The position numbers and the translations under genes are program-made. Below the pieces are notes generated by a model that saw only the letters and a program-made list of their open reading frames with translations, was not told where the DNA came from and ran no database searches. A stretch of 64,000 nucleotides of DNA from Centroscyllium fabricii (Eukaryota): assembly GCA_051313645.2 (NCBI GenBank), contig JBNRSN020000012.1, forward strand, positions 11,718,001 through 11,782,000. Reading direction: 5' to 3'. Of the stretch, positions 38,150 to 63,611 are shown piece after piece (positions within the stretch are counted from its first letter, which is position 1; every line of letters begins with the position of its first letter).

Positions 38150-39350
38150 TACCATTTTAAAAGGATGTAATAGCTGAGCACTTGGAAAACAGCGACAGGA
38201 TCGGACAAAGTCAACATGGATTTACTAAAGGTAAATCGTGCTTGACTAATCTGCTGGAGTTTTTTGAGGATGTAACTGGGAAAATAGATAAGGGAGAACC
38301 AGTAAATGTGGTGTATTTGGACTTTCAAAAGGCTTTTGATAAGGTCCCGCATAAGAGATTAGCGTGTAAAGTTAAGGCACATGGGACTGGGGGCAAGGTA
38401 TTGACTTGGATAGAGAACTGGTTGGCAGACAGAAAGCAAAGAGTTGGAATGAACGGGTCTTTTTCAGAGTGGCAGGCAGTGACTAGTGGGGTACCGCAGG
38501 GATCGGTTCTTGGACCCCAGCTATTCACAATATACATTAATGATCTCGACGAGGGAACTAGATGTAATATCTCCAAGTTTGAAGACGACACAAAGCTGGG
38601 TGGGCGTGTGTGCCGTGAGGAGGATGCCGAGAAACTCCAGTATGATTTGGACAGGTTGGTTGATTGGGCAGAAGCATGGCAGATGCAATATAACGTGGAT
38701 AAATGCGAGGTTATCCACTTTGGTGTCAAAAACAGAAAGGCAGACTATTATCTGAATGGCAATAGATTGGGAGAAGGGGAATTGCAACGAGACCTGGGTG
38801 TTCTTGTGCACCAGTCGCTGAAGGTACGCGTGCAGGTGCAGCAGGCGGTTAAGGCGGCAAATGGTATGTTGGCCTTCATAGCGAAAGGGTTTGAGTACAG
38901 GAACAAGGATGTCCTGCTGCAGTTGCACAGGGTCTTGGTGAGACCACACCTTGAGTACTGTGTGCAGTTTTGGTTGCTTTATCTGAGGAAGGATGTTCTT
39001 GCCATGGAAGGAGTTCAGCGACGATTCACCAGACTGATATCTGGGATGGCAGGAATGACGTATGAGGAGAGATTGGGTCGATTGGGCTTATACTCGCTGG
39101 AGTTTAGAAGAATGAGAGGGCATCTCATCGAAACTTATAACATTCTGACAGGACTGGACAGACCAGATGCAGGAAGGATGTTCCCGATGGTCGGGGAGTC
39201 AACCAGGGGTCACAGTCTAATGATAAGGGGTAAGCCATTTAGGACAGAGGTGAGGAAGAATTTCTTCACCCAGAGAGTGGTGAACCTGTGGAATTCTCTA
39301 CCACAGAAAGTAGTTGAGCCCAAGTTATTAAATATATTCAAGGGTTAGAT
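38150..39350 (+). pseudogene. CR1 ORF2 reverse transcriptase, 5'-truncated (388-aa open frame)
   Basis: QHGFTKGKSCLTNL, YLDFQKAFDKVPH, SGVPQGSVLGP, ISKFEDDTKL; no endonuclease domain; C-terminus cut by a SINE insertion. Confidence 0.9.
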
Positions 39351-41131: not shown

Positions 41132-44100
41132 CAGACCTGTACCCACCAGTACTGTACCCCAGTGTTATACAGTGACAGACCTGTACCCACCAGTACTGTA
41201 CCCCAGTGTTATACAGTGACAGACCTGTACCCACCAGTACTGTACCCCAGTGTTATACAGTGACAGGCCTGTACCCACCAGTACTGTACCCCAGTGTTAT
41301 ACAGTGACAGACCTGTACCCACCAGTACTGTACCCCAGTGTTATACAGTGACAGACCTGTACCCACCAGTACTGTACCCCAGTGTTATACAGCGACAGAG
41401 CTGTACCCACCAGTACTGTACCCGTGTTATACAGTGACAGACCTGTACCCACCAGTACTGTACCCGTGTTATACAGTGACAGACCTGTACCCACCTGTAC
41501 TGTACCCGTGTTTTACAGAGACAGACCTGTACCCACCAGTACTGTACCCCAGTGTTATACAGTGACAGACCTGTACCCACCTGTACTGTACCCCAGTGTT
41601 TTACAGAGACAGACCTGTACCCACCAGTACTGTACCCCAGTGTTATACAGTGACAGACCTGTACCCACCAGCACTGTACCCCAGTGTTATACAGACAGAC
41701 CTGTACCCACCAGTCCTGTACCCCAGTGTTATACAGTGACAGACCTGTACCCACCAGTACTGTACCCGTGTTACACACTGACAGACCTGTACCCACCAGT
41801 ACTGTACCCCAGTGTTATACAGTGACAAACATGTACCCACCAGCACTGTACCCGTGTTATACAGTGACAGACCTGTACCCACCAGTACTGTACCCGTGTT
41901 ACAGTGACAGACCTGTACCCACCAGCACTGTACCCGTGTTACAGTGACAGACCTGTACCCACCAGTACTGTACCAGTGTTATACAGTGACAGACCTGTAC
42001 CCACCAGCACTGTACCCGTGTTATACAGTGACAGACCTGTACCCACCAGCACTGTACCCCAGTGTTATACAGTGACAGACCTGTACCCACCAGTACTGTA
42101 CCCGTGTTATAGTGACAGACCTGTACCAACCAGTACTGTACCCGTGTTATAGTGACTGACCGGTACCCACCAGTACTGTACCCGTGTTATACAGTGACAG
42201 ACATGTACCCACCAGTACTGTACCCGTGTTATACAGTGACAGACCTGTACCCACCAGCACTGTACCCGTGTTATACAGTGACAGACCTGTACCCACCAGT
42301 ACTGTACCCCAGTGTTATACAGTGACAGACCTGTACCCACCAGTACTGTACCCGTGTTATACAGTGACAGACCTGTACCCACCAGTACTGTACCCATGTT
42401 ACAGTGACAGACCTGTACCCACCAGTACAGTACCCGTGTTATACAGCGACAGACCTGTACCCACCAGTACTGTACCCGTGTTATACAGTGACAGACCTGT
42501 ACCCACCAGTACTGTACCCGTGTTATACAGTGACAGACCTGTACCCACCAGTACTGTACCCCAGTGTTATACAGTGACAGACCTGTACCCACCAGTACTG
42601 TACCCCAGTGTTATACAGTGACAGACCTGTACCCACCAGTACTGTACCCGTGTTATACAGTGACAGACCTGTACCCACCAGCACTGTACCCGTGTTATAC
42701 AGTGACAGACCTGTACCCACCAGCACTGTACCCCAGTGTTATACAGTGACAGACCTGTACCCACCAGTACTTTACCCGTGTTACAGTGACAGACCTGTAC
42801 CCACCAGTACTGCACCCGTGTTACAGTGACTGACCGGTACCCACCAGTACTGTACCCGTGTTATACAGTGACAGACCTGTACCCACCAGTACTGTACCCC
42901 AGTGTTAGTGACAGACCTGTACCCACCAGTACTGTACCCGTGTTATACAGGGACAGACCTGTACCCCCCAGTACTGTACCCCAGTGTTATACAGTGACAG
43001 ACCTGTACCCACCAGTACTGTACCCGTGTTATACAGTGACAGACCTGTACCCACCAGCACTGTACCCGTGTTATACAGTGACAGACCTGTACCCACCAGC
43101 ACTGTACCCCAGTGTTATACAGTGACAGACCTGTACCCACCAGTACTGTACCCGTGTTATAGTGACAGACCTGTACCCACCAGTACTGCACCCGTGTTAC
43201 AGTGACTGACCGGTACCCACCAGTACTGTACCCGTGTTATACAGTGACAGACCTGTACCCACCAGTACTGTACCCGTGTTATACAGTGACAGACCTGTAC
43301 CCACCAGTACTGTACCCGTGTTATACAGTGACAGACCTGTACCCACCAGTACTGTACCCCAGTGTTACACAGTGACAGACCTGTACCCACCAGTACTGTA
43401 CCCGTGTTATACAGTTACAGACCTGTACCCACCAGTACTGTACCCGTGTTACAGTGACAGACCTGTACCCACCAGTACTGTACCCGTGTTATACAGTGAC
43501 AGACCTGTACCCACCAGTACTGTACCCGTGTTATACAGCGACAGACCTGTACCCAGCAGTACTGTACCCCAGTGTTATACAGTGACAGACCTGTACCCAC
43601 CAGTACTGTACCCCAGTGTTACAGTGACAGACCTGTACCCACCAGTACTGTACCCGTGTTATACAGTTACAGACCTGTACCCACCAGTACTGTACCCCAG
43701 TGTTAGTGACAGACCTGTACCCACCAGTACTGTACCCGTGTTATACAGGGACAGACCTGTACCCCCCAGTACTGTACCCGTGTTATACAGTGACAGACCT
43801 GTACCCACCAATACTGTACCCGTGTTATACAGTGACAGACCTGTACCCACCAGTACTGTACCCGTGTTATACAGTGACAGACCTGTACCCACCAGTACTG
43901 TACCCGTGTTATACAGTGACAGACCTGTACCCACCAGTACTGTACCCGTGTTACACAGTGACAGACCTGTATCCACCAGCACTGTACCCGTGTTATACAG
44001 TGACAGACCTGTACCCACCAGTACGGTACCCGTGTTATACAGTGACAGACCTGTACCCACCAATACTGTACCCGTGTTATACAGTGACAGAACTGTACCC

Positions 44101-46864
44101 ACCAGTACTGTACCCGTGTTATACAGTGACAGACCTGTACCCACCAGTACTGTACCCGTGTTATACAGTGACAGACCTGTACCCACCAGCACTGTACCCC
44201 AGTGTTATACAGTGACAGACCTGTACCCACCAGTACTGTACCCATGTTATACAGTGACAGACCTGTACCCACCAGTACTGTACCCGTTATACAGTGACAG
44301 ACCTGTACCCACCAGTACTGTACACCAGTGTTATACAGTGACAGACCTGTACCCACCAGTACTGTACCCGTGTTATACAATGACAGACCTGTACCCACCA
44401 GCACTGTACCCCAGTGTTGTACAGTGACAGAGCTGTACCCACCAGTACTGTACCCGTGTTACAGTGACAGACCTGTACCCACCAGCACTGTACCCGTGTT
44501 ATACAGTGACAGACCTGTACCCCCCAGTACTGTACCCGTGTTATACAGTGACAGACCTGTACCCACCAATACTGTACCCGTGTTATACAGTGACAGACCT
44601 GTACCCACCAGTACTGTACCCATGTTATACAGTGACAGACCTGTACCCACCAGTACTGTGCCCGTGTTATACAATGATAGATCTGTACCCACCAGTACTG
44701 TACCCGTGTTATACAGCGACAGACCTGTACCCACCAGTACTGTACCCCAGTGTTAGTGACAGACCTGTACCCACCAGTACTGTACCCGTGTTATACTGGG
44801 ACAGACCTGTACCCCCCAGTACTGTACCCCAGTGTTATACAGTGACAGACCTGTACCCACCAGTACTGTGCCCGTGTTATACAATGATAGATCTGTACCC
44901 ACCAATACTGTACCCGTGTTATACAGTGACAGACCTGTACCCACCAATACTGTACCCATATTATACAGTGACAGACCTGTACCCACCAGTACTGTGCCCG
45001 TGTTATACAATGATAGATCTGTACCCACCAGTACTGTACCCATATTATACAGTGACAGACCTGTACCCAGCAGTAATGTACCCGTTTTATACAGTGACAG
45101 ACCTGTACCCACCAGTACTGTACCCGTGTTATAGAGACAGACCTGTACCCAGCAGTACTGTACCCAAGTGTTACAGTGAAAGACTTGTACCCATCAGTAT
45201 TGTACCAGTGTTATACAGTGACAGACATTTACCCATCCGTACTGTACCCGTGTTATAGTGACTGACCTGTACCTACCACTACTGTATATCAGTGTTATAG
45301 TGACAGACCCGTACCCACCAGTACTGTACCCCAGTATTAGTGACAGACCTGTACCCACCGTAATGTACCCGTTTAATGCAGCGACAGACCTGTACCCACC
45401 AGTACTGTGTCCCAGTGTTACAGTGACAGACCTGTACCCACCAGTACTGTACTCCAGTGTTATACAGCGACAGACCTGTACCCACCAGTACTGTACCCGT
45501 GATATACAGCAGCAGACCTGTACCCACCAGTACTGTACCCGTGTTATACAGTGCCAGACCTGTACCCACCAGTACTGTACCCGTGTTATACAGTGACAGA
45601 CCTGTACCCACCAATACTGTACCCGTGTTATACAGTGACAGACCTGTACCCACCAGTACTGTACCCGTGTTACAGTGACAGACCTGTACCCACCTATACT
45701 GTACCCGTGTTATACAGTGACAGACCTGTACCCACCAATACTGTACCCGTGTTATACAGTGACAGACCTGTACCCACCAGTACTGTGCCGTGTTGTACAA
45801 TGATAGATCTGTACCCACCAGTACTGTACCCGTGTTATACAGAGACATACCTGTACCCAGCAGTAATGTACCCCAGTGTTATACAGTGACAGACCTGTAC
45901 CCACCAGTACTGTACCCGTGTTATAGAGACAGACCTGTACCCAGCAGTACTGTACCCAAGTGTTACACAGTGAAAGACTTGTACCCACCAGTATTGTACC
46001 AGTGTTATACAGTGACAGACATTTACCCATCCGTACTGTACCCCAGTGTTATAGTGACTGACCTGTACCTATCACTACTGTATATCTGTGTTATAGTGAC
46101 AGACCCGTACCCACCAGTACTGTACCCCAGTATTAGTGATAGACCTGTACCCACCGTAATGTACCCGTTTAATGCAGCGACAGACCTGTACCCACCAGTA
46201 CTGTGTCCCAGTGTTACAGTGACAGACCTGTACCCACCAGTACTGTACTCCAGTGCTATACAGCGACAGGCCTGTACCCACCAGTACTGTACCCGTGATA
46301 TACAGCAGCAGACCTGTACCCACCAATACTGTACCCGTGTTATACAGTGACAGACCTGTACCCACCAGTACTGTACCCGTGTTATACAGTGACAGACCTG
46401 TACCCACCAGTACTGTACCCGTGTTATACAGTGACAGACCTGTACCCACCAGTACTGTACCCGTGTTATACAGTGAGACCTGTACCCACCAGTACTGTAC
46501 CCGTGTTATACAGTGACAGACCTGTACCCACCAGTACTGTACCCGTGTTATACAGTGACAGACCTGTACCCACCAGTACTGTGCCCGTGTTATACAATGA
46601 TAGATCTATACCCACCAGTACTGTACCCGTGTTATACAGAGACAGACCTGTACCCACCAGTACTGTACCCGTGTTATACACTGACAGACCTGTACCCACC
46701 AGTACTGTACCCCAGTGTTATACACTGACAGACCTGTACCCACCAGTACTGTACCCCAGTGTTATACAGTGACAGACCTGTACCCACCAGTACTGTACCC
46801 CAGTGTTATACACTGACAGACCTGTACCCACCAGTACTGTACCCCAGTGTTATACAGAGACAGA
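41132..46864. repeat. 5.7-kb tandem satellite, 42/44-bp unit (40-bp variants), roughly 130 copies
   Basis: Unit ACAGTGACAGACCTGTACCCACCAGTACTGTACCC(CA)GTGTTAT seen directly. Confidence 0.97.
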
Positions 46865-52820: not shown

Positions 52821-53801
52821 TGATGTGATAATGGAGTCTGATACATCAATAGCTTAATTTAATCCACTGCATTATCATTATGTACAAAGCCGGGTTTTAC
52901 CAATTCAATTCAAGTTTTATTGTCATTGCAGAGTACTAGTACAATACAACGAGACGAAGACTCGACTCTCCCGAGAGTAGTGCAAATAAAATAAATAAAT
53001 TACATGCAAATTGCATACAGTAAAGTACATTATCAGGCGTGCAGGTACCGGAGTTTCTTTTTAGAGTTCAGGAGGCTGACAGCCCTGGGGAAGAAGCTGC
53101 TCTGAAATCTAGTTGTGCGGGTGCAAATTGCTCTGTAGCGTCTCCCGGAGGGCAGGGGGGCGAACAGACTGTGGCTGGGGTGTGAGGGGTCTTTAATAAT
53201 GTTCCGAGACCTCCGTAAGCAGCGTTTGAGGTAGATGCTTTCCATTGACGGTAGCTGTGTACCGGTAATTCGTTGGGCAGTTTTGACTACCCGCTGCAGG
53301 GTTTTCCGGTCCGAGATAGTGCAATTACCATACCAGACAGTGATGCAGCTTGTCAGTATGCTTTCTATTGTGCAGCGGTAGAAGTTGGAGAGGATGCCGG
53401 ATGACAGCCTGGCTTTCTTCAGCTTCCTTAGGAAGTACAGGCGCTGTTGGGCCTTCTTAACCAGAGAGGAGGTGTTTAGTGACCAGGAGAGATCTTCCAA
53501 GATGTGGACCCCGAGGAACTTGAAGCTGGACACCCTTTCCACCTCAGCCCCTTGGATGAAGATGGGGGTGTGTCTTCTGCTTCCAGTCCTCCGGAAGTCC
53601 ACTATGATCTCCTTGGTTTTCTTGGTGTTCAGTGCCAGGTTGTTGTCGGCACACCAACCCACAAGGCGCTTACCATGCTTCCAGGTGAAGCGTTCCCCCA
53701 TACTGAGCAGTTCCAGTATTTATACTAACAGAAAACAGGAAGTGGCATGTACAGAGCTCACCCCTTAGCCTTCCCCCGGAAGTCTGTTCAATATTACCAC
53801 A
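52821..53801 (-). mobile_element. Short solo-LTR-like insertion related to family A (about 208 bp net), containing a Rex insertion
   Basis: TGATGTGA...TACCACA; TSD TTCCC (52816-52820, 53802-53806); ends resemble 2489-2717. Confidence 0.7.
52903..53669 (-). mobile_element. Rex1/Babar-like LINE 3' fragment
   Basis: Near-identical to 13692-14470; TSD TTACCA (52897-52902, 53670-53675). Confidence 0.85.
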
Positions 53802-54313
53802 TTCCCTACATTACAACAGTGACTATACTTCATAAGGCCCTGTCACACCTTGACGTTTTAGCCAGCGTATGCAAATTTGGCGAAAACGTTGGTTTACGTC
53901 GGATACGTTATGGGTAAGTTTTGTATACGTTAAGAGCACGCTGGCATACGTCATTGAGTCAAGAAATTTTGAGCATGCACAAAATTTCTCGACGTATCCT
54001 GCGTATGACTCACACGTTCCGCATACGCTGGCCATAAGTTGTAGGCACGTTAGGCGATCGTTGACACACGTCGACACACGTTACTTGTAAGTTAGTCATA
54101 AGTCAAAATACGTCGAGATAATGTCTAGCGTACCCGGAACTTATTTCTAACCTATGAGTAATGTGCTTTGAACCTATGTGTAACATATCTCCAACGCATA
54201 TTGACGTATGTAGACGTATTTGACGTCTTCCTGACGACCACAGAACTTACTGAACGTGTTTCTAACTTACAGCTACCGTATAATGGCGTATTGGCAGCGT
54301 TTAGGGGAATTGG

Positions 54314-54351
54314 TATATAAAAAATGGGGTTCACAGGAGGAACCCGTCAGT
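54314..54351 (+). promoter_or_regulatory. Putative TATA box plus initiator of the transposase gene
   Basis: TATATAAA at 54314-54321 and TCAGT at 54347-54351, upstream of ATG 54395. Confidence 0.5.
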
Positions 54352-54394
54352 GTTCCAGACTCCATGGTGAGCAGATGTCCATGTCATCCGAGAG

Positions 54395-55881
54395 ATGGAG
54401 GATCCGGCAAGACGAGAATACCTACTAGCTGTCCTCCAACATCAACATGCCCTCATCGATTTGACACTGTACCAGTTGCGTGCCAATAGAGCCAGGAGAA
54501 GAATAGGTGAACGGAGGAGAAGGAACTGGGTGAGACCATGGATCGGGAGGCGACGGCAGTTTGGCATGTATGACCAGCTCATGGTGGAACTCCGTAACGA
54601 GGACCATGCATCCTTCACCAACTTCCTGCGTATGCCCCCAGCGATGTTCGACGAGCTGCTAGCCAGAGTGGGTCCAAGGATAACCAAGCAGTACACTTTC
54701 TACAGGGATCCGCTTGAGCCTGGCATGAAGCTGGCACTGACTTTGCGTCACCTTGCCTCTGGAAACAAGTATGCCTCGATGAAGTTCGCATGGAGGGTCC
54801 CTCACAACACCCAGTCCCTAGTGGTCAGAGAAGTCTGTCAAGCCATTATTGACGAATACGTGGATGAGGTGATGGTTTGCCCAAGTACTCCTGATGGTTG
54901 GCGCGCCATAGCTGACAAGTTCTTCCAACGATGGAACTTTCCCCATACATGTGGGGCACTTGACGGGAAGCACGTGGCCTGCCGCTGTCCTCCAAAGACT
55001 GGGTCCCAATACTACAACTACAAAGGATTCTACTCCATTGTTCTGATGGCGCTTGTGGATGCTGACTACAAATTCATTTGGGCAGATGTCGGCGGTACTG
55101 GATCTGCATCAGATGCGCAGATATACAATGACTCTGAGCTGAAGGAATGCGCTGAAGACGGTACCCTTGGTTTCACTGACCCTGAGCCTCTTCCCAACGA
55201 CAACCAGGACGTGCCTTACTTCTTTATCGGTGACGATGCCTTCGCCTTACGACCAACCATGATGAAGCCATACAGCCTCCGTGGTCTGACGAATGAACAA
55301 CGCATCTTCAACTACAGGCTTAGCCGAGCAAGGAGGGTAGTAGAAAATGCATTCGGCATCCTGGCTAACAGATTCCAGGTTCTGCTAAGTACCATGCAGC
55401 ATCACCCCTCCACTGTCAAGCTCATTGTCAAAGCATGCTTGATCCTGCACAACCTCATGAGGACCAGGTAATTCATGTTTACATAGCATATATTATACAG
55501 TATACAATGAAATTTAACTTTTAGCCTATGCTTATAAACATTATATGATTTAACTTAAATTTTACATGTATCATTATATTACTTTTTAATGTACAGCGCA
55601 TTAGAATATATGTTTTTATTATAGGTGCGCTTTATAAGTAAATAAAATCAAATTCAAATTCCAGGTACCCAGGACTACAGAACCAGCAGCTTGACCGGGC
55701 AGAGAATGAGAACCGCGACCTTGTTCCAGCAGCATGGCGACAGGGACATCAGTTGGAGGATACACAGACAGCTACTGGCCCCAACACTGCCTCCAAGGAC
55801 GGAAGGAAACAGAGGAATCTCCTCAAGCACTGGGTTAACTCCCCAGCTGGCGCAGTTCCGTGGCAAGATAGGATGATTTAG
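54395..55881 (+). CDS. Harbinger transposase (DDE_Tnp_4 / HARBI1-like nuclease), two exons 54395-55467 and 55665-55881, 429 aa
   Basis: GALDGKHV, GSASD, FIGDDAF and RARRVVENAFG motifs; AT-rich GT-AG intron 55468-55664 whose removal extends the frame to ...HWVNSPAGAVPWQDRMI*; AATAAA at 55909-55914. Confidence 0.9.
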
Positions 55882-56189
55882 ATATTTGTATTACTGCATT
55901 GTTCAGGCAATAAAGGACCTCAGAGACTTTCCTCCTGAAATGAACATCTTATAAAAAGCCTTTTTTTCCAATTATCCACTTTTCAATATACATGTACATT
56001 ATATTATTATACCTTTTTCAAAGTGTATGAATTTATTATTGTTAATTATTGTTTATGATTTAAATTATAAAACAATATCAACAAACATCAAGAGTTTGCT
56101 TAATTTGATCGTCGGCGAAACACTGCCGCGCGCTATGCATAAGTTAGACTATCGTTGGGCATAAGTTGTGAACGCCGACAACACGCTAA

Positions 56190-56942
56190 AGGCCCTGTCA
56201 CACCTAGACGTTTTAGCCAGCGTATGCAAATTTGGCTAAAACGCTGGGTTACGTCGGATACGTTATGGGTACGTTATGCATACGTTACGAGAACGCTGGC
56301 ATACGCTGGGCATACGCTGGGCATACGTTGCATACGTCGTTGTACTTCGAGTCAAGGCCCTGTCACACCTAGACGTTTTAGCCAGCGTATGCAAATTTGG
56401 CTAAAACGCTGGGTTACGTCGGATACGTTATGGGTACGTTACGAGAACGCTGGGCATACGCTGGGCATACGTTGCATACGTCGTTGTACTTCGAGTAAGT
56501 CGAGAATTTTTGAGCATGCACAAAAAATCTCGACTTATCCAGCGTATGACTCACACGTTCCGCATACGCTGGCCATACGTTGTAGGCACGTTAGGCGATC
56601 GTTGAACACACTTTACCTGTGCCCCTGTGATGCCCTGTCACAACTTGACGATTTAGTATGCCAACGTATCAAAATTTATCTAAAACGTCGGCGATACGCT
56701 GCCGCGCGCTATGCATACGTTAGACTATCGTTGGGCATAAGTTGAGAACGCCGACAACACGCTAAGCATTCGTTGGTATAAGTTATCTGTAAGTTATCGA
56801 TACGTTCTGTGTACGTTACTAATACGTTATACATACGTTATGAATACGCTATTATACGCCCAAAACTGAAAAAAAGTCAAAAGTTCAGCGTTTTAGCCAA
56901 ATTTGCATACGCTGGCTAAAACGTCTAGGTGTGACAGGGCCT
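56190..56942. mobile_element. Non-autonomous Harbinger MITE nested in its cognate element
   Basis: 57-bp perfect TIRs starting AGGCCCTGTCACACCTAGACG; TSD TAA (56187-56189, 56943-56945); the empty-site sequence ACACGC-TAA-GCATTCG is present at about 56757-56772. Confidence 0.9.
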
Positions 56943-57164
56943 TAAGCATTCGTTGGTATAAGTTGGTATAAGTTATCTGTAAGTTATCGATACGCTCTGT
57001 GTACGTTACTAATACGTATGCATACGTCCAACTCGTTATGAATACGCTATCAAACGCCCAAAACTGAAAAAAACATCGATAGTTCAGCGAACGCCAGCGT
57101 TTTAGATAAATTTGCATAAGTCGGCATGCGCTAGCTAATTCGTCAAGGTGTGACAGGGCCTATA

Positions 57165-57622
57165 AAAACATAGAAGATAGGAGAAGTCGGCCATTCGGCC
57201 CCTCGATCCTGCTCCGCCATTCAATGAGATCATGGCTGATCATTCAAATTCAGTACCCTGTCCCTGACTTCTCCCCATATCCCTTGATCCTTTAGCCTTA
57301 AGAAATACATCCAGCTCCTTCTTGAATATATTTAATGAACTGGCCTCCACCGCCCTCTGTGGCAGAGAATTCCACAGGTTCACCACTCTCTGGGTGAAGA
57401 AATTCCTCCTCATCTCTGTCCTAAATGGCTTACTCCTTATCCTTAGACTGTGACCCCTGGTTCTGGACTCCCCGACCATCGGGAACATCCTTCCTGCATC
57501 TAGTCTGTCCAGTCCTGTTAGAATTTTATAAGTTACGATGAGATCCCCTCTCATTCTTCTGAACTCCAGCGGGTATAAGCCAAATCAACCCAATCTCTCC
57601 TCATATGTCATTCCTGCCATCC
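57165..57622 (-). mobile_element. CR1 LINE 3' end (host of the Harbinger insertion)
   Basis: ORF 57240-57554; flanked by duplicated TACTTCA within a Deu SINE. Confidence 0.85.
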
Positions 57623-61844: not shown

Positions 61845-62530
61845 ACATAAGAATTAGGATCAGGGGTAGGCCATTCGGCCCCTCGAGCCTGCTCCGCCAT
61901 TCAATGAGATCATGGCTGTTCCCCATCTCCACTTTCCTGCACTATCCCCATATCCCTCGATTCCCTTCATATTCAAAAATCTATCGATCTCTGTCTTGAA
62001 TATAATCAACGACTGAGCCTCCACAGCCCTCTGGGGTAGAGAATTCCAAAGATTCACCACCCTCTGTGTGAAGAGATTCCTCCTCATCTCAGTCCTAAAT
62101 GGCCGACCCCTTATTCTGAGACTGTGACCCCTGGTTCTAGACTCCCCAGCCAGGGGAAACATAGAAACATAGAAGATAGGAGCAGGAGTAGGCCATTTGG
62201 CCCTTCGAGCCTGCTCCACCATTCAATGAGATCATGGCTGATCATCCAAACCCAGCACCCCACCCATACCCTCTCCCCATATCCCTCGCTCCCTATCGAG
62301 CCTGCACCGACACATATCCCACCCTATCCCCGTAACCCCACATATTTAATCCCCCTAACACTAAGGGTCAATTTATCCTGGCCAATCAACCTAACCCGCA
62401 CATCTTTGGACTGTGGGAGGAAACCGGAGCAACCGGAGGAAACCCACCCTGCATCTACCCTGTCAATCCCTCCAAGTATTTTAGGTTTCAATGAGATCAC
62501 CTCTCATTCTTCTAAATTCCAGAGAATATA
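61845..62530 (-). mobile_element. CR1 3' end with nested partial V-SINE (about 62158-62447)
   Basis: ESRTRGHSLRIRGRPFRTEMRRNLFTQRVVNLWNSLP. Confidence 0.8.
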
Positions 62531-62639
62531 TGCAATGGGCTTTCATTGTTTTTTTTTAAAATCCATTCCGATTTTCTCGTCTCAACTCCTGAAGGCAGCG
62601 AGTCACCCACTGCCACATCACCCACTGCCACATCACCCA

Positions 62640-63611
62640 CGTTTTCCAACTGCGATTCTACATCCTGAGAGCCGGCAGGCTGTTCGACCCCAGCGAGCCA
62701 ACAAGAGCGCACACCCCACCAGCCTCCACATTCAACGGATCATCCTCCGACATTTCGCCACCTCCAACGTGATCCCACCACCAAACACATCTTCCCCTCA
62801 CCTCCCCTTTCAGCATTCCGCAGGGACCGATCCCTCCGCGACACCCTGGTCCACTCATTTATCACCCCCAACACCCTTTCCCCTTCGCCCGGCACCTTCC
62901 TGTGCAAGCGCAGGAGATGCAACACCTGCCCTTTTACCTCCCCCACTTCCCACTATCCTGGGCCCCAAACACTCCTTCCAGGTGAAACAGCGATTTACTT
63001 GTACTTCTTGCAATCTAATATACTGTATTCGCTGCTCACGATGTGGTCTCCTCTAAACTGGGGAGACCAAACGCAGATTGGTTGACCGCTTTACGGAACA
63101 CCTCCGTTCAGTCCGTAAGGGGGACCCCGAGCTTCCAGTAGCCTGTCACTTTAATTCTCCGCTCCACTCCCACGCATTCCTCACTGACTTCGGCCTCCTG
63201 CATTGTTCCAATGAAGCTCAGCGTGAGCTCGAGGAACAGCACCTCATCTTTCGATTAGGCACTTTACAGCCTTCTGGATTCAGCATCGAGTTCAACAGTT
63301 TCAAATCATAACCTCGGCCCCTATCATTTTTTTCTCTCTATTGCATGACAGCTGTCAATCATTCTGCCATTGCCATTTACACTTCATCTAGAGTCATCAT
63401 TTGTTTCTCAACTTCTCCCATTTCCATCTCCTTTTGCCTCGCACCATCATCCCTTTTGTCTCCTAATCTCTCCGGCCTTCCATCCTATCACAGACCTTCC
63501 CGTTTGTCCTTCCCTCCCCTCCCCCCTTTCCCGGCCCCTGCACTTGCTTAAGAGCCTGTTCCATCTCCAGCTTTTTCCAGTTGTGATGAAGGGTCATCCA
63601 CCTGAAACGTT
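62640..63611 (+). mobile_element. Penelope-like element remnant (family 2): GIY-YIG region plus pLTR
   Basis: FTCTSCNLIYCIRCSRCGLL*TGETKRRLVDRFTEHLRSV; degenerate hammerhead GTGATGA-AGGGTCATCCACCT-GAAA-CGTT at 63579-63611. Confidence 0.8.

Follow-up and report, generated by a model that had tools for sequence, protein, structure and literature searches.

In the 64-kb stretch of shark DNA analysed here (the window) lies a PIF/Harbinger element that encodes a DDE transposase and no second gene (Table 1). Its 21-bp terminal inverted repeats (TIRs) are perfect and it is bordered on either side by the same target-site duplication (TSD), as a first-pass annotation made from the letters alone had stated; the duplicated triplet, ATA, is atypical for the family, recurring in 1 of 137 other left flanks, for which the consensus is TNA. 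That annotation also described about 300 bp of AT-rich sequence as all that follows the stop codon, and here it overlooked a nested MITE of the same family, which consists of a 165-bp 5′ piece and a complete 588-bp MITE beginning at 56355, and whose empty site is spanned by 144 alignments. Without the insertion the native element measures ~2,574 bp, a length shared by 27 of the 29 other best copies (of the remaining two, one has a nested MITE of its own and one is broken off). Retention of CpGs, likewise noted, holds for the subterminal regions (observed/expected ratio 1.5–1.7) but not for the two exons (0.60 and 0.42), and across the window the majority of 2-kb bins lie between 0.33 and 0.76. 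The TATA and polyadenylation signals exist, albeit as mere consensus matches. The lack of a Myb/SANT partner gene was recognised correctly: tblastn of the whole 64-kb window with the family's own MADF exons returned no match, and the element's TIR pair does not enclose both genes of an autonomous Harbinger.

Table 1. Parts of the Harbinger element in the 64-kb window, numbered from the first letter of the window.
Feature	Position	Strand	Remark
Left TSD, ATA	53832..53834	+	
Left TIR, 21 bp, perfect	53835..53855	+	
Left subterminal region, CpG-rich	53835..54274	+	Common to MADF-only and two-gene copies; the match to MADF-only elements is interrupted at its end
TATA-like box	54314..54319	+	Consensus match only; within the segment absent from MADF-only elements
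Transposase exon 1	54395..55467	+	N-terminal helix, residues 4–42; DDE core D190, D280, E317
GT-AG intron, 197 nt	55468..55664	+	
Transposase exon 2, including stop	55665..55881	+	
AATAAA polyadenylation-like signal	55909..55914	+	Consensus match only
AT-rich segment	55932..56105	.	Between the parent's two convergent genes; retained by transposase-only and MADF-only elements alike
T1-type deletion junction	56105..56106	.	Site where the parent's 1.62-kb MADF gene was lost
Nested MITE of the same family	56190..56942	+	753 bp; TAA duplicated at 56187–56189 and 56943–56945
Right TIR	57141..57161	-	
Right TSD, ATA	57162..57164	+	

The surroundings of the element hold two LINE remnants on the minus strand, at 53033–53719 and 57165–57584, one of which matches Pfam ALKBH8_N (E = 1.6e-19); the other has no Pfam match and is presumably a CR1-like 3′ end, going by its resemblance. 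Further long stop-free frames of 276–405 aa occur on the plus strand of the window, at 38161–39348, 43210–45258 and 62040–63056.

Is the transposase gene intact? Removal of the predicted intron leaves a stop-free frame of 429 aa, as had been proposed, and the protein is a member of Pfam DDE_Tnp_4 (IS5-like; E = 9.8e-31). Among 87 family copies, D190 and E317 are present in all and D280 in 86; together we take them to be the catalytic residues, by their likeness to familiar motifs. Structure prediction places an N-terminal helix at residues 4–42 (pLDDT 90). A sequence search for relatives of solved structure yielded none, and a fold search returned nothing at E ≤ 0.001, the weak top match being piggyBac (E = 0.008). 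Several lines of evidence bear out the intron. Homologous proteins (P0001, P0128) are continuous across the predicted exon junction, and two sister subfamilies carry frame-breaking deletions, of 14 nt and 91 nt, within the intron (183 and 106 nt left) that preserve the GT and AG ends and leave the exons open. The annotation had further called for reads across the 55467/55665 junction. Four sequencing runs (X15–X18; that they are RNA is a guess) were compared at this site. A 197-nt skip from GT to AG was found in one contig each of X17 and X18, with relatives ~92–97% alike; in X15 and X16 the intron is still in place.

Where, then, is the missing partner gene? When aligned to intact copies with both genes from this 7.2-Gb genome, the element proves to be a deletion derivative, as earlier proposed, and the longer copies with a MADF frame for which the annotation had suggested a search turned out to be 4.2-kb Harbinger elements with two convergent genes. 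The second gene encodes a MADF domain (PF10545), found in a two-gene copy (L093) as well as in a MADF-only copy (L061). A genome-wide MADF search yielded 6,062 candidates; 15 of the best 30 loci carry the ends of the window element and, when extended, none of these 15 contains the transposase. Such MADF-only elements keep the left 440 bp, skip the transposase gene together with the TATA box, and at the very position of the window element's junction bear a MADF gene of two exons, encoded on the opposite strand. The family hence comprises transposase-only and DNA-binding-only derivatives, both in multiple copies and with common ends.

Exact junction matches reveal the scale of this split. The deletion of the window element (T1) occurs 568 times genome-wide, a second MADF deletion (T2) 1,378 times and the transposase deletion of the MADF-only elements 1,936 times; a transposase motif has 2,243 matches. 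Set against these gene-bearing copies, the 40,988 TIR ends in the genome imply that most of roughly 20,000 elements are MITEs. The same deletion joints recur in a DNA run (X1) and a second run of unclear kind (X2), both maybe from the host species, and are therefore not assembly artefacts. Among the first 53 transposase-motif matches on one contig (C1), 47 were transposase-only, 4 two-gene and 2 unclassified; 13 lay at T1 junctions, and the other 40 comprised 30 T2 copies, 4 T1 variants, 4 two-gene copies of a subfamily termed F2 and the 2 unclassified. Conversely, 35 of 35 MADF-junction loci were devoid of the transposase, and the first 20 matches to that junction included 12 full MADF frames (404–437 aa), 6 early stops and 2 unparsed cases. 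The transposase frame is open in 28 of 40 T1 copies (the first 42 listed minus 2 sampled before, with one of the 40 lacking both genes) and in 28 of 30 T2 copies.

Intact two-gene copies are few. A two-motif pattern had 11 matches, an undercount given that it misses F2; 7 of them are 4.2-kb elements with both genes, 2 are MADF-deleted and 1 is transposase-deleted. A second pattern intended for F2 was unspecific (1,521 matches, including single-gene copies) and was dropped. Both frames are open in 3 of the 11 pattern matches, all belonging to the F1 subfamily and to the 4.2-kb set, and in 1 of 4 F2 copies (L092, L093, L099 and L175 in all). The annotation understated the scale: the window element has ~2,000 transposase-only copies for company, and theirs is the family's majority form. 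As to the partner it was said to need in trans, the cognate MADF gene does exist, in ~1,900 MADF-only and a few two-gene elements; that these complement it is what the selection and end-sequence data below suggest.

A second Harbinger family (family B: L076–L080; ~3770–7860 in L077) encodes a transposase 52–53% identical to that of the split family, which in tblastn matches in one piece across the split family's intron position. The other 15 of the best 30 MADF loci appear to belong to it (5 of them were extended), and a convergent MADF gene lies beside the transposase in 5 of 5 extended loci, so that family B lends itself as a natural control. Might the window transposase borrow its partner from such a second two-gene family, or be undergoing domestication by the host? 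Although family B is on hand as a lender, its TIRs differ from those of the split family, in which cognate MADF genes are plentiful; and the window copy, which has hundreds of near-identical mobile counterparts whose TIRs are intact, is unlike a HARBI1-type gene, which is single-copy and has lost its TIRs. We regard both variants of this idea as highly improbable.

The family is young, as the annotation surmised: its best 30 copies differ by 0.3% pairwise, and sampled T1 copies by 0.17% in private changes. The suggestion of a horizontal arrival gained support as well. The transposase shares 94–95% identity with proteins of hagfish and 91% with those of shrimp and periwinkle, and MADF exon 1 matches a priapulid protein at 86%, whereas the host's RAG2 is 91% identical to that of one named shark and 78–82% to those of other sharks and rays. 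In the protein phylogeny that had been recommended, which has 29 rows, the four from the family group together as a single clade (97/90) nested within a hagfish–shrimp–snail clade (96/95). Identity above the level of a host gene and a tree at odds with host relationships are thus both seen, at the protein level. None of the 120 matches listed, nor of the listed members of 7 clusters, is named as a shark protein, most matches being unnamed; Harbinger was reported as undetected in the elephant shark (Etchegaray et al. 2022, PMC9179366), and our literature search found no earlier report of a Harbinger burst in an elasmobranch.

How many arrivals were there? The majority sequences of the four subfamilies lack two residues that are present in five outgroup proteins, and 0 of 50 copies listed carry an insertion. 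F1 and T2 differ at 22 sites, and at 21 of these the outgroup proteins have the state of the two-gene F1. Taken with the single family clade, the shared deletion and the outgroups' agreement with F1 make one horizontal arrival of an F1-like element the simplest reading of the sequences.

From this putative founder, 87 near-complete transposase sequences form a ladder of F1, T1 and T2, with F2 as a side branch, and 27 full-frame MADF genes form a second ladder. These samples are small relative to the ~2,000 copies of each kind and come mostly from one contig, and the tree is approximate owing to recombination; we limited this effect by counting distinct variants and set aside branch-wise parsimony counts, which recombination inflates. 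Private changes per copy amount to 0.23% in F1, 0.17% in T1 and 0.06% in T2. Within T1 the window copy is basal, and its right end is of the ancestral type; three successive right-end variants (early, middle, late) appear in the same order in the transposase-only and MADF-only lineages. T2 retains bases lost in T1 and yet nests within it, a combination that, as we infer, requires recombination with a copy that has the MADF gene. That F2 is a re-fusion of both halves was rejected, an F2 MADF gene (one row) branching outside the MADF-only ladder.

Relative to F1, the T2 transposase has diverged by 3% and the latest MADF genes by 12.5%, that is, 10–50 times the private divergence of any copy. Such a gap would also arise if the subfamilies had diverged under selection in another host, such as a parasite or prey species, and entered the shark one after another. 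Near-identical relatives do exist in several other organisms, and horizontal transfer is known to impose purifying selection (PMC7070016). Serial import from an unsampled donor would leave the selective signature described below and is the main alternative to selection within this genome. We nonetheless deem it quite unlikely: every rung of the ladder is present as a multi-copy subfamily, in order of age; the two-residue deletion is family-wide; the outgroup majority has the derived T2 state at just 1 of the 22 sites; and the two closest outside relatives compared (X15, X16) carry ancestral states.

Are the transposase-only lineages under selection? We classified distinct variants as shared if 4 or more of the 74 transposase-only copies carried them, and used the Pfam-defined DDE core. 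Within this core, shared variants comprise 8 nonsynonymous and 12 synonymous changes (omega 0.22, p ~0.001; also 0.001 after dropping the codons used for sample selection), compared with 29 and 4 outside it (Fisher p 0.0005). The contrast is stable at sharing thresholds from 3 to 10, singletons are near neutral, and F2 repeats it independently (core 3:5, outside 15:0). Of 30 shared amino-acid changes, 1 falls in a column with conservation of at least 90%, as opposed to 30 of 82 singletons (rank test p 0.0005). Judged by these variants, the transposase-only lineages show purifying selection on the DDE core and avoidance of changes at conserved residues. Outside the core, the amino-acid excess is not significant for transposase-only copies alone (p 0.11–0.27) but reaches p 0.003–0.015 when they are pooled with F2; 9 of the majority changes between F1 and T2 fall in residues 9–38, inside the predicted N-terminal helix. 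Synonymous CpG changes make up 0 of 16 shared and 12 of 41 singleton changes (p 0.013), a shortage consistent with unmethylated source copies or with mutation in the course of repair. For the MADF gene the sign of selection is weak (26 nonsynonymous to 14 synonymous changes in the domain, p 0.03–0.09; elsewhere omega 0.45–3.1, none significant). Altered DNA-binding specificity as the selective link found no support, the presumed MADF recognition helix being nearly invariant.

The signal in the core bears on who supplies the proteins. Were it the two-gene copies, the solo-ORF elements would be passive passengers whose frames are open through youth alone. Four two-gene copies do have both frames open, and private changes of 0.06–0.23% are so few that open frames are to be expected regardless. 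Against this stands the purifying selection on branches that lead to transposase-only copies and nothing else. The two-gene subfamilies, moreover, are older (0.21–0.23% private changes, compared with T2 as the youngest), 3 of 4 F2 MADF frames stop early, and neither the T2 transposase nor late MADF genes occur in the two-gene copies sampled. Supply by two-gene copies therefore strikes us as unlikely.

The explanation we consider probable is instead that a two-gene PIF/Harbinger, likely after a single horizontal entry, was largely replaced by reciprocal halves that likely complement each other in trans, the window element being a transposase-only derivative. In Harbinger3_DR and Ping/Pong both proteins are required, and the Myb/MADF protein binds subterminal DNA as well as the transposase (PMC2836001, PMC9710019); by analogy, transposase-only copies would need a MADF protein from elsewhere, for which the MADF-only copies, far outnumbering the two-gene ones, are the most likely source. 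Together with the selection signal and the shared end variants, these parallels suggest that the halves mobilise the family in trans. The MADF protein of MADF-only copies would bind the subterminal repeats and recruit the DDE transposase of transposase-only copies, whereupon the two halves, along with more than 10,000 MITEs, could be cut and pasted. Gap repair at donor sites may then produce deletions, end swaps and the faster divergence of lineages. The least certain step is how selection reaches a trans-acting gene: a few unsilenced copies in germ cells might be both the source of protein and the favoured substrate, akin to the argument made for LTR elements that open copies are both expressed and mobile (Zhang et al. 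2020, PMC7070016).

The TSDs offer a glimpse of how the ends may be cut. We evaluated 137 simple loci among L002–L202, skipping 24 that were nested, truncated or duplicate. The left flank is TAA or TTA in 112 of the 137 and TNA in 135, consistent with 3-bp TWA targets. In 40 loci the two 3-bp duplications are unequal, in 39 of these at the middle base only; since divergence is under 1%, mutation does not account for this. Flank swapping or misassembly is unsupported, as a contiguous empty-site homologue exists for 15 of the 40 loci with a mismatch and for 34 of the 97 without, and a left/right bias among the first 30 copies vanished in the full set (11 vs 10). A staggered cut through the duplications has been proposed (Gilbert et al. 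2015, PMC4561436). If excision proceeds in this way and the overhangs are carried into the next TNA site, mismatched duplications would result, and overhang retention with independent repair of the two ends predicts 0.65 × 0.5 = 33% mismatches, compared with 29% seen. At two matched loci (L072, L145) both ends differ from most or all empty-site homologues, as carry-over also predicts. The unequal duplications fit a carry-over of donor overhangs and parallel piggyBac at non-TTAA sites.

How does this family compare with known systems? The window element itself is of a known kind, and its solo-ORF architecture has been published; new are the near-symmetric split with its succession, selection and shared ends. 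Both ORFs were present in all fish Harbinger elements studied by Etchegaray et al. (2022, PMC9179366), PMC5741667 had nothing to add about split elements, and our literature search found solo-ORF Harbingers only in sea kraits and Caenorhabditis inopinata, its one other match being a paper on domestication. For Harbinger-Snek of the sea krait L. colubrina, Galbraith et al. (2021, PMC8437027) counted 2,263 intact copies with the transposase alone, 452 with the DNA-binding gene alone and 269 full ones. As is likely for the shark family, it arrived in a vertebrate horizontally from marine invertebrates, and it too has short non-coding variants; its solo-ORF variants are called possibly non-autonomous, and the words 'purifying', 'complement' and 'in trans' are absent from the main text of that paper. 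In the shark the halves are near-equal in number, and the measurements extend to the succession of lineages, to selection and to the end variants held in common. Harbinger-1M_cIno of C. inopinata likewise gave rise to DDE-only and MADF-only elements from one two-gene parent, with trans action proposed (Sato et al. 2026, PMC13668399), but it has one intact DDE locus, 14 intact MADF loci and a dead two-gene copy; in the shark each half numbers ~2,000, and a few two-gene copies are intact. Harbinger3_DR and Ping/Pong/mPing share with the shark family the 3-bp TWA targets, the mobilised MITEs and a proposed staggered TSD cut (PMC2836001, PMC9710019, PMC4561436); unlike the shark halves, they carry both genes in a single element. 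Non-matching TSDs, in Ping/Pong-type work a matter of engineered constructs, are found here in natural insertions, providing natural evidence on the cutting of PIF/Harbinger ends.

The usual view holds that the proteins of DNA transposons are public goods, such that their genes drift within a genome and persist only by jumping between hosts (PMC7070016, PMC13558583). Neutral evolution within the genome is the stated expectation, the mechanism leaving no space for cis-preference (Zhang et al. 2020, PMC7070016; PMC13558583 for the expectation), and neutrality is what Zhang et al. found for DNA transposons inside genomes. We found no report of in-genome selection on a Harbinger, by title and in literature mainly outside subscription journals. 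A split family is the expected extreme of the public-goods case, yet its transposase-only lineages show selection. LINE-1 elements evolve as a single-lineage succession with a fast-changing N-terminal part. They, too, are under purifying selection within one host lineage, given their cis-preference (Zhang et al. 2020, PMC7070016), whereas the shark family is a DNA transposon. We tentatively raise the possibility that the latter operates as a two-partner cooperative in a LINE-1-like fashion, with a succession of master subfamilies, a core under purifying selection, adaptive change in the N-terminal helix, lineages diverging 10–50 times faster than resting copies, and ends traded in step, all inside one vertebrate genome. 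If true, cis-preference can in effect exist in DNA transposons, whose decay once they have invaded would not be inevitable. As the family preserves all intermediate subfamilies and thousands of young copies, the question of selection is directly testable, and the transposase and MADF variants represent a natural series for mix-and-match assays.

Several further observations concern individual copies. One locus (L126; G000:C1:327664280-327667680) has both deletion junctions and neither gene in ~1.2 kb, and is likely a recombinant of both halves. Run X17, from another organism, shows at high depth a different transposase-skipping joint on L093 (1899 to 3603), possibly an independent split or a MITE. 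In L072 (4000–6680), a LINE, presumably CR1-like by its motifs, whose endonuclease/reverse-transcriptase frame runs uninterrupted for 898 aa, is inserted upstream of the MADF start codon. Finally, family members are often nested or adjacent (L025, L064, L165, L194), with eight TIR ends within 2.5 kb at G000:C1:34964462-34966995, which suggests a preference for the family's own subterminal TAA sites.
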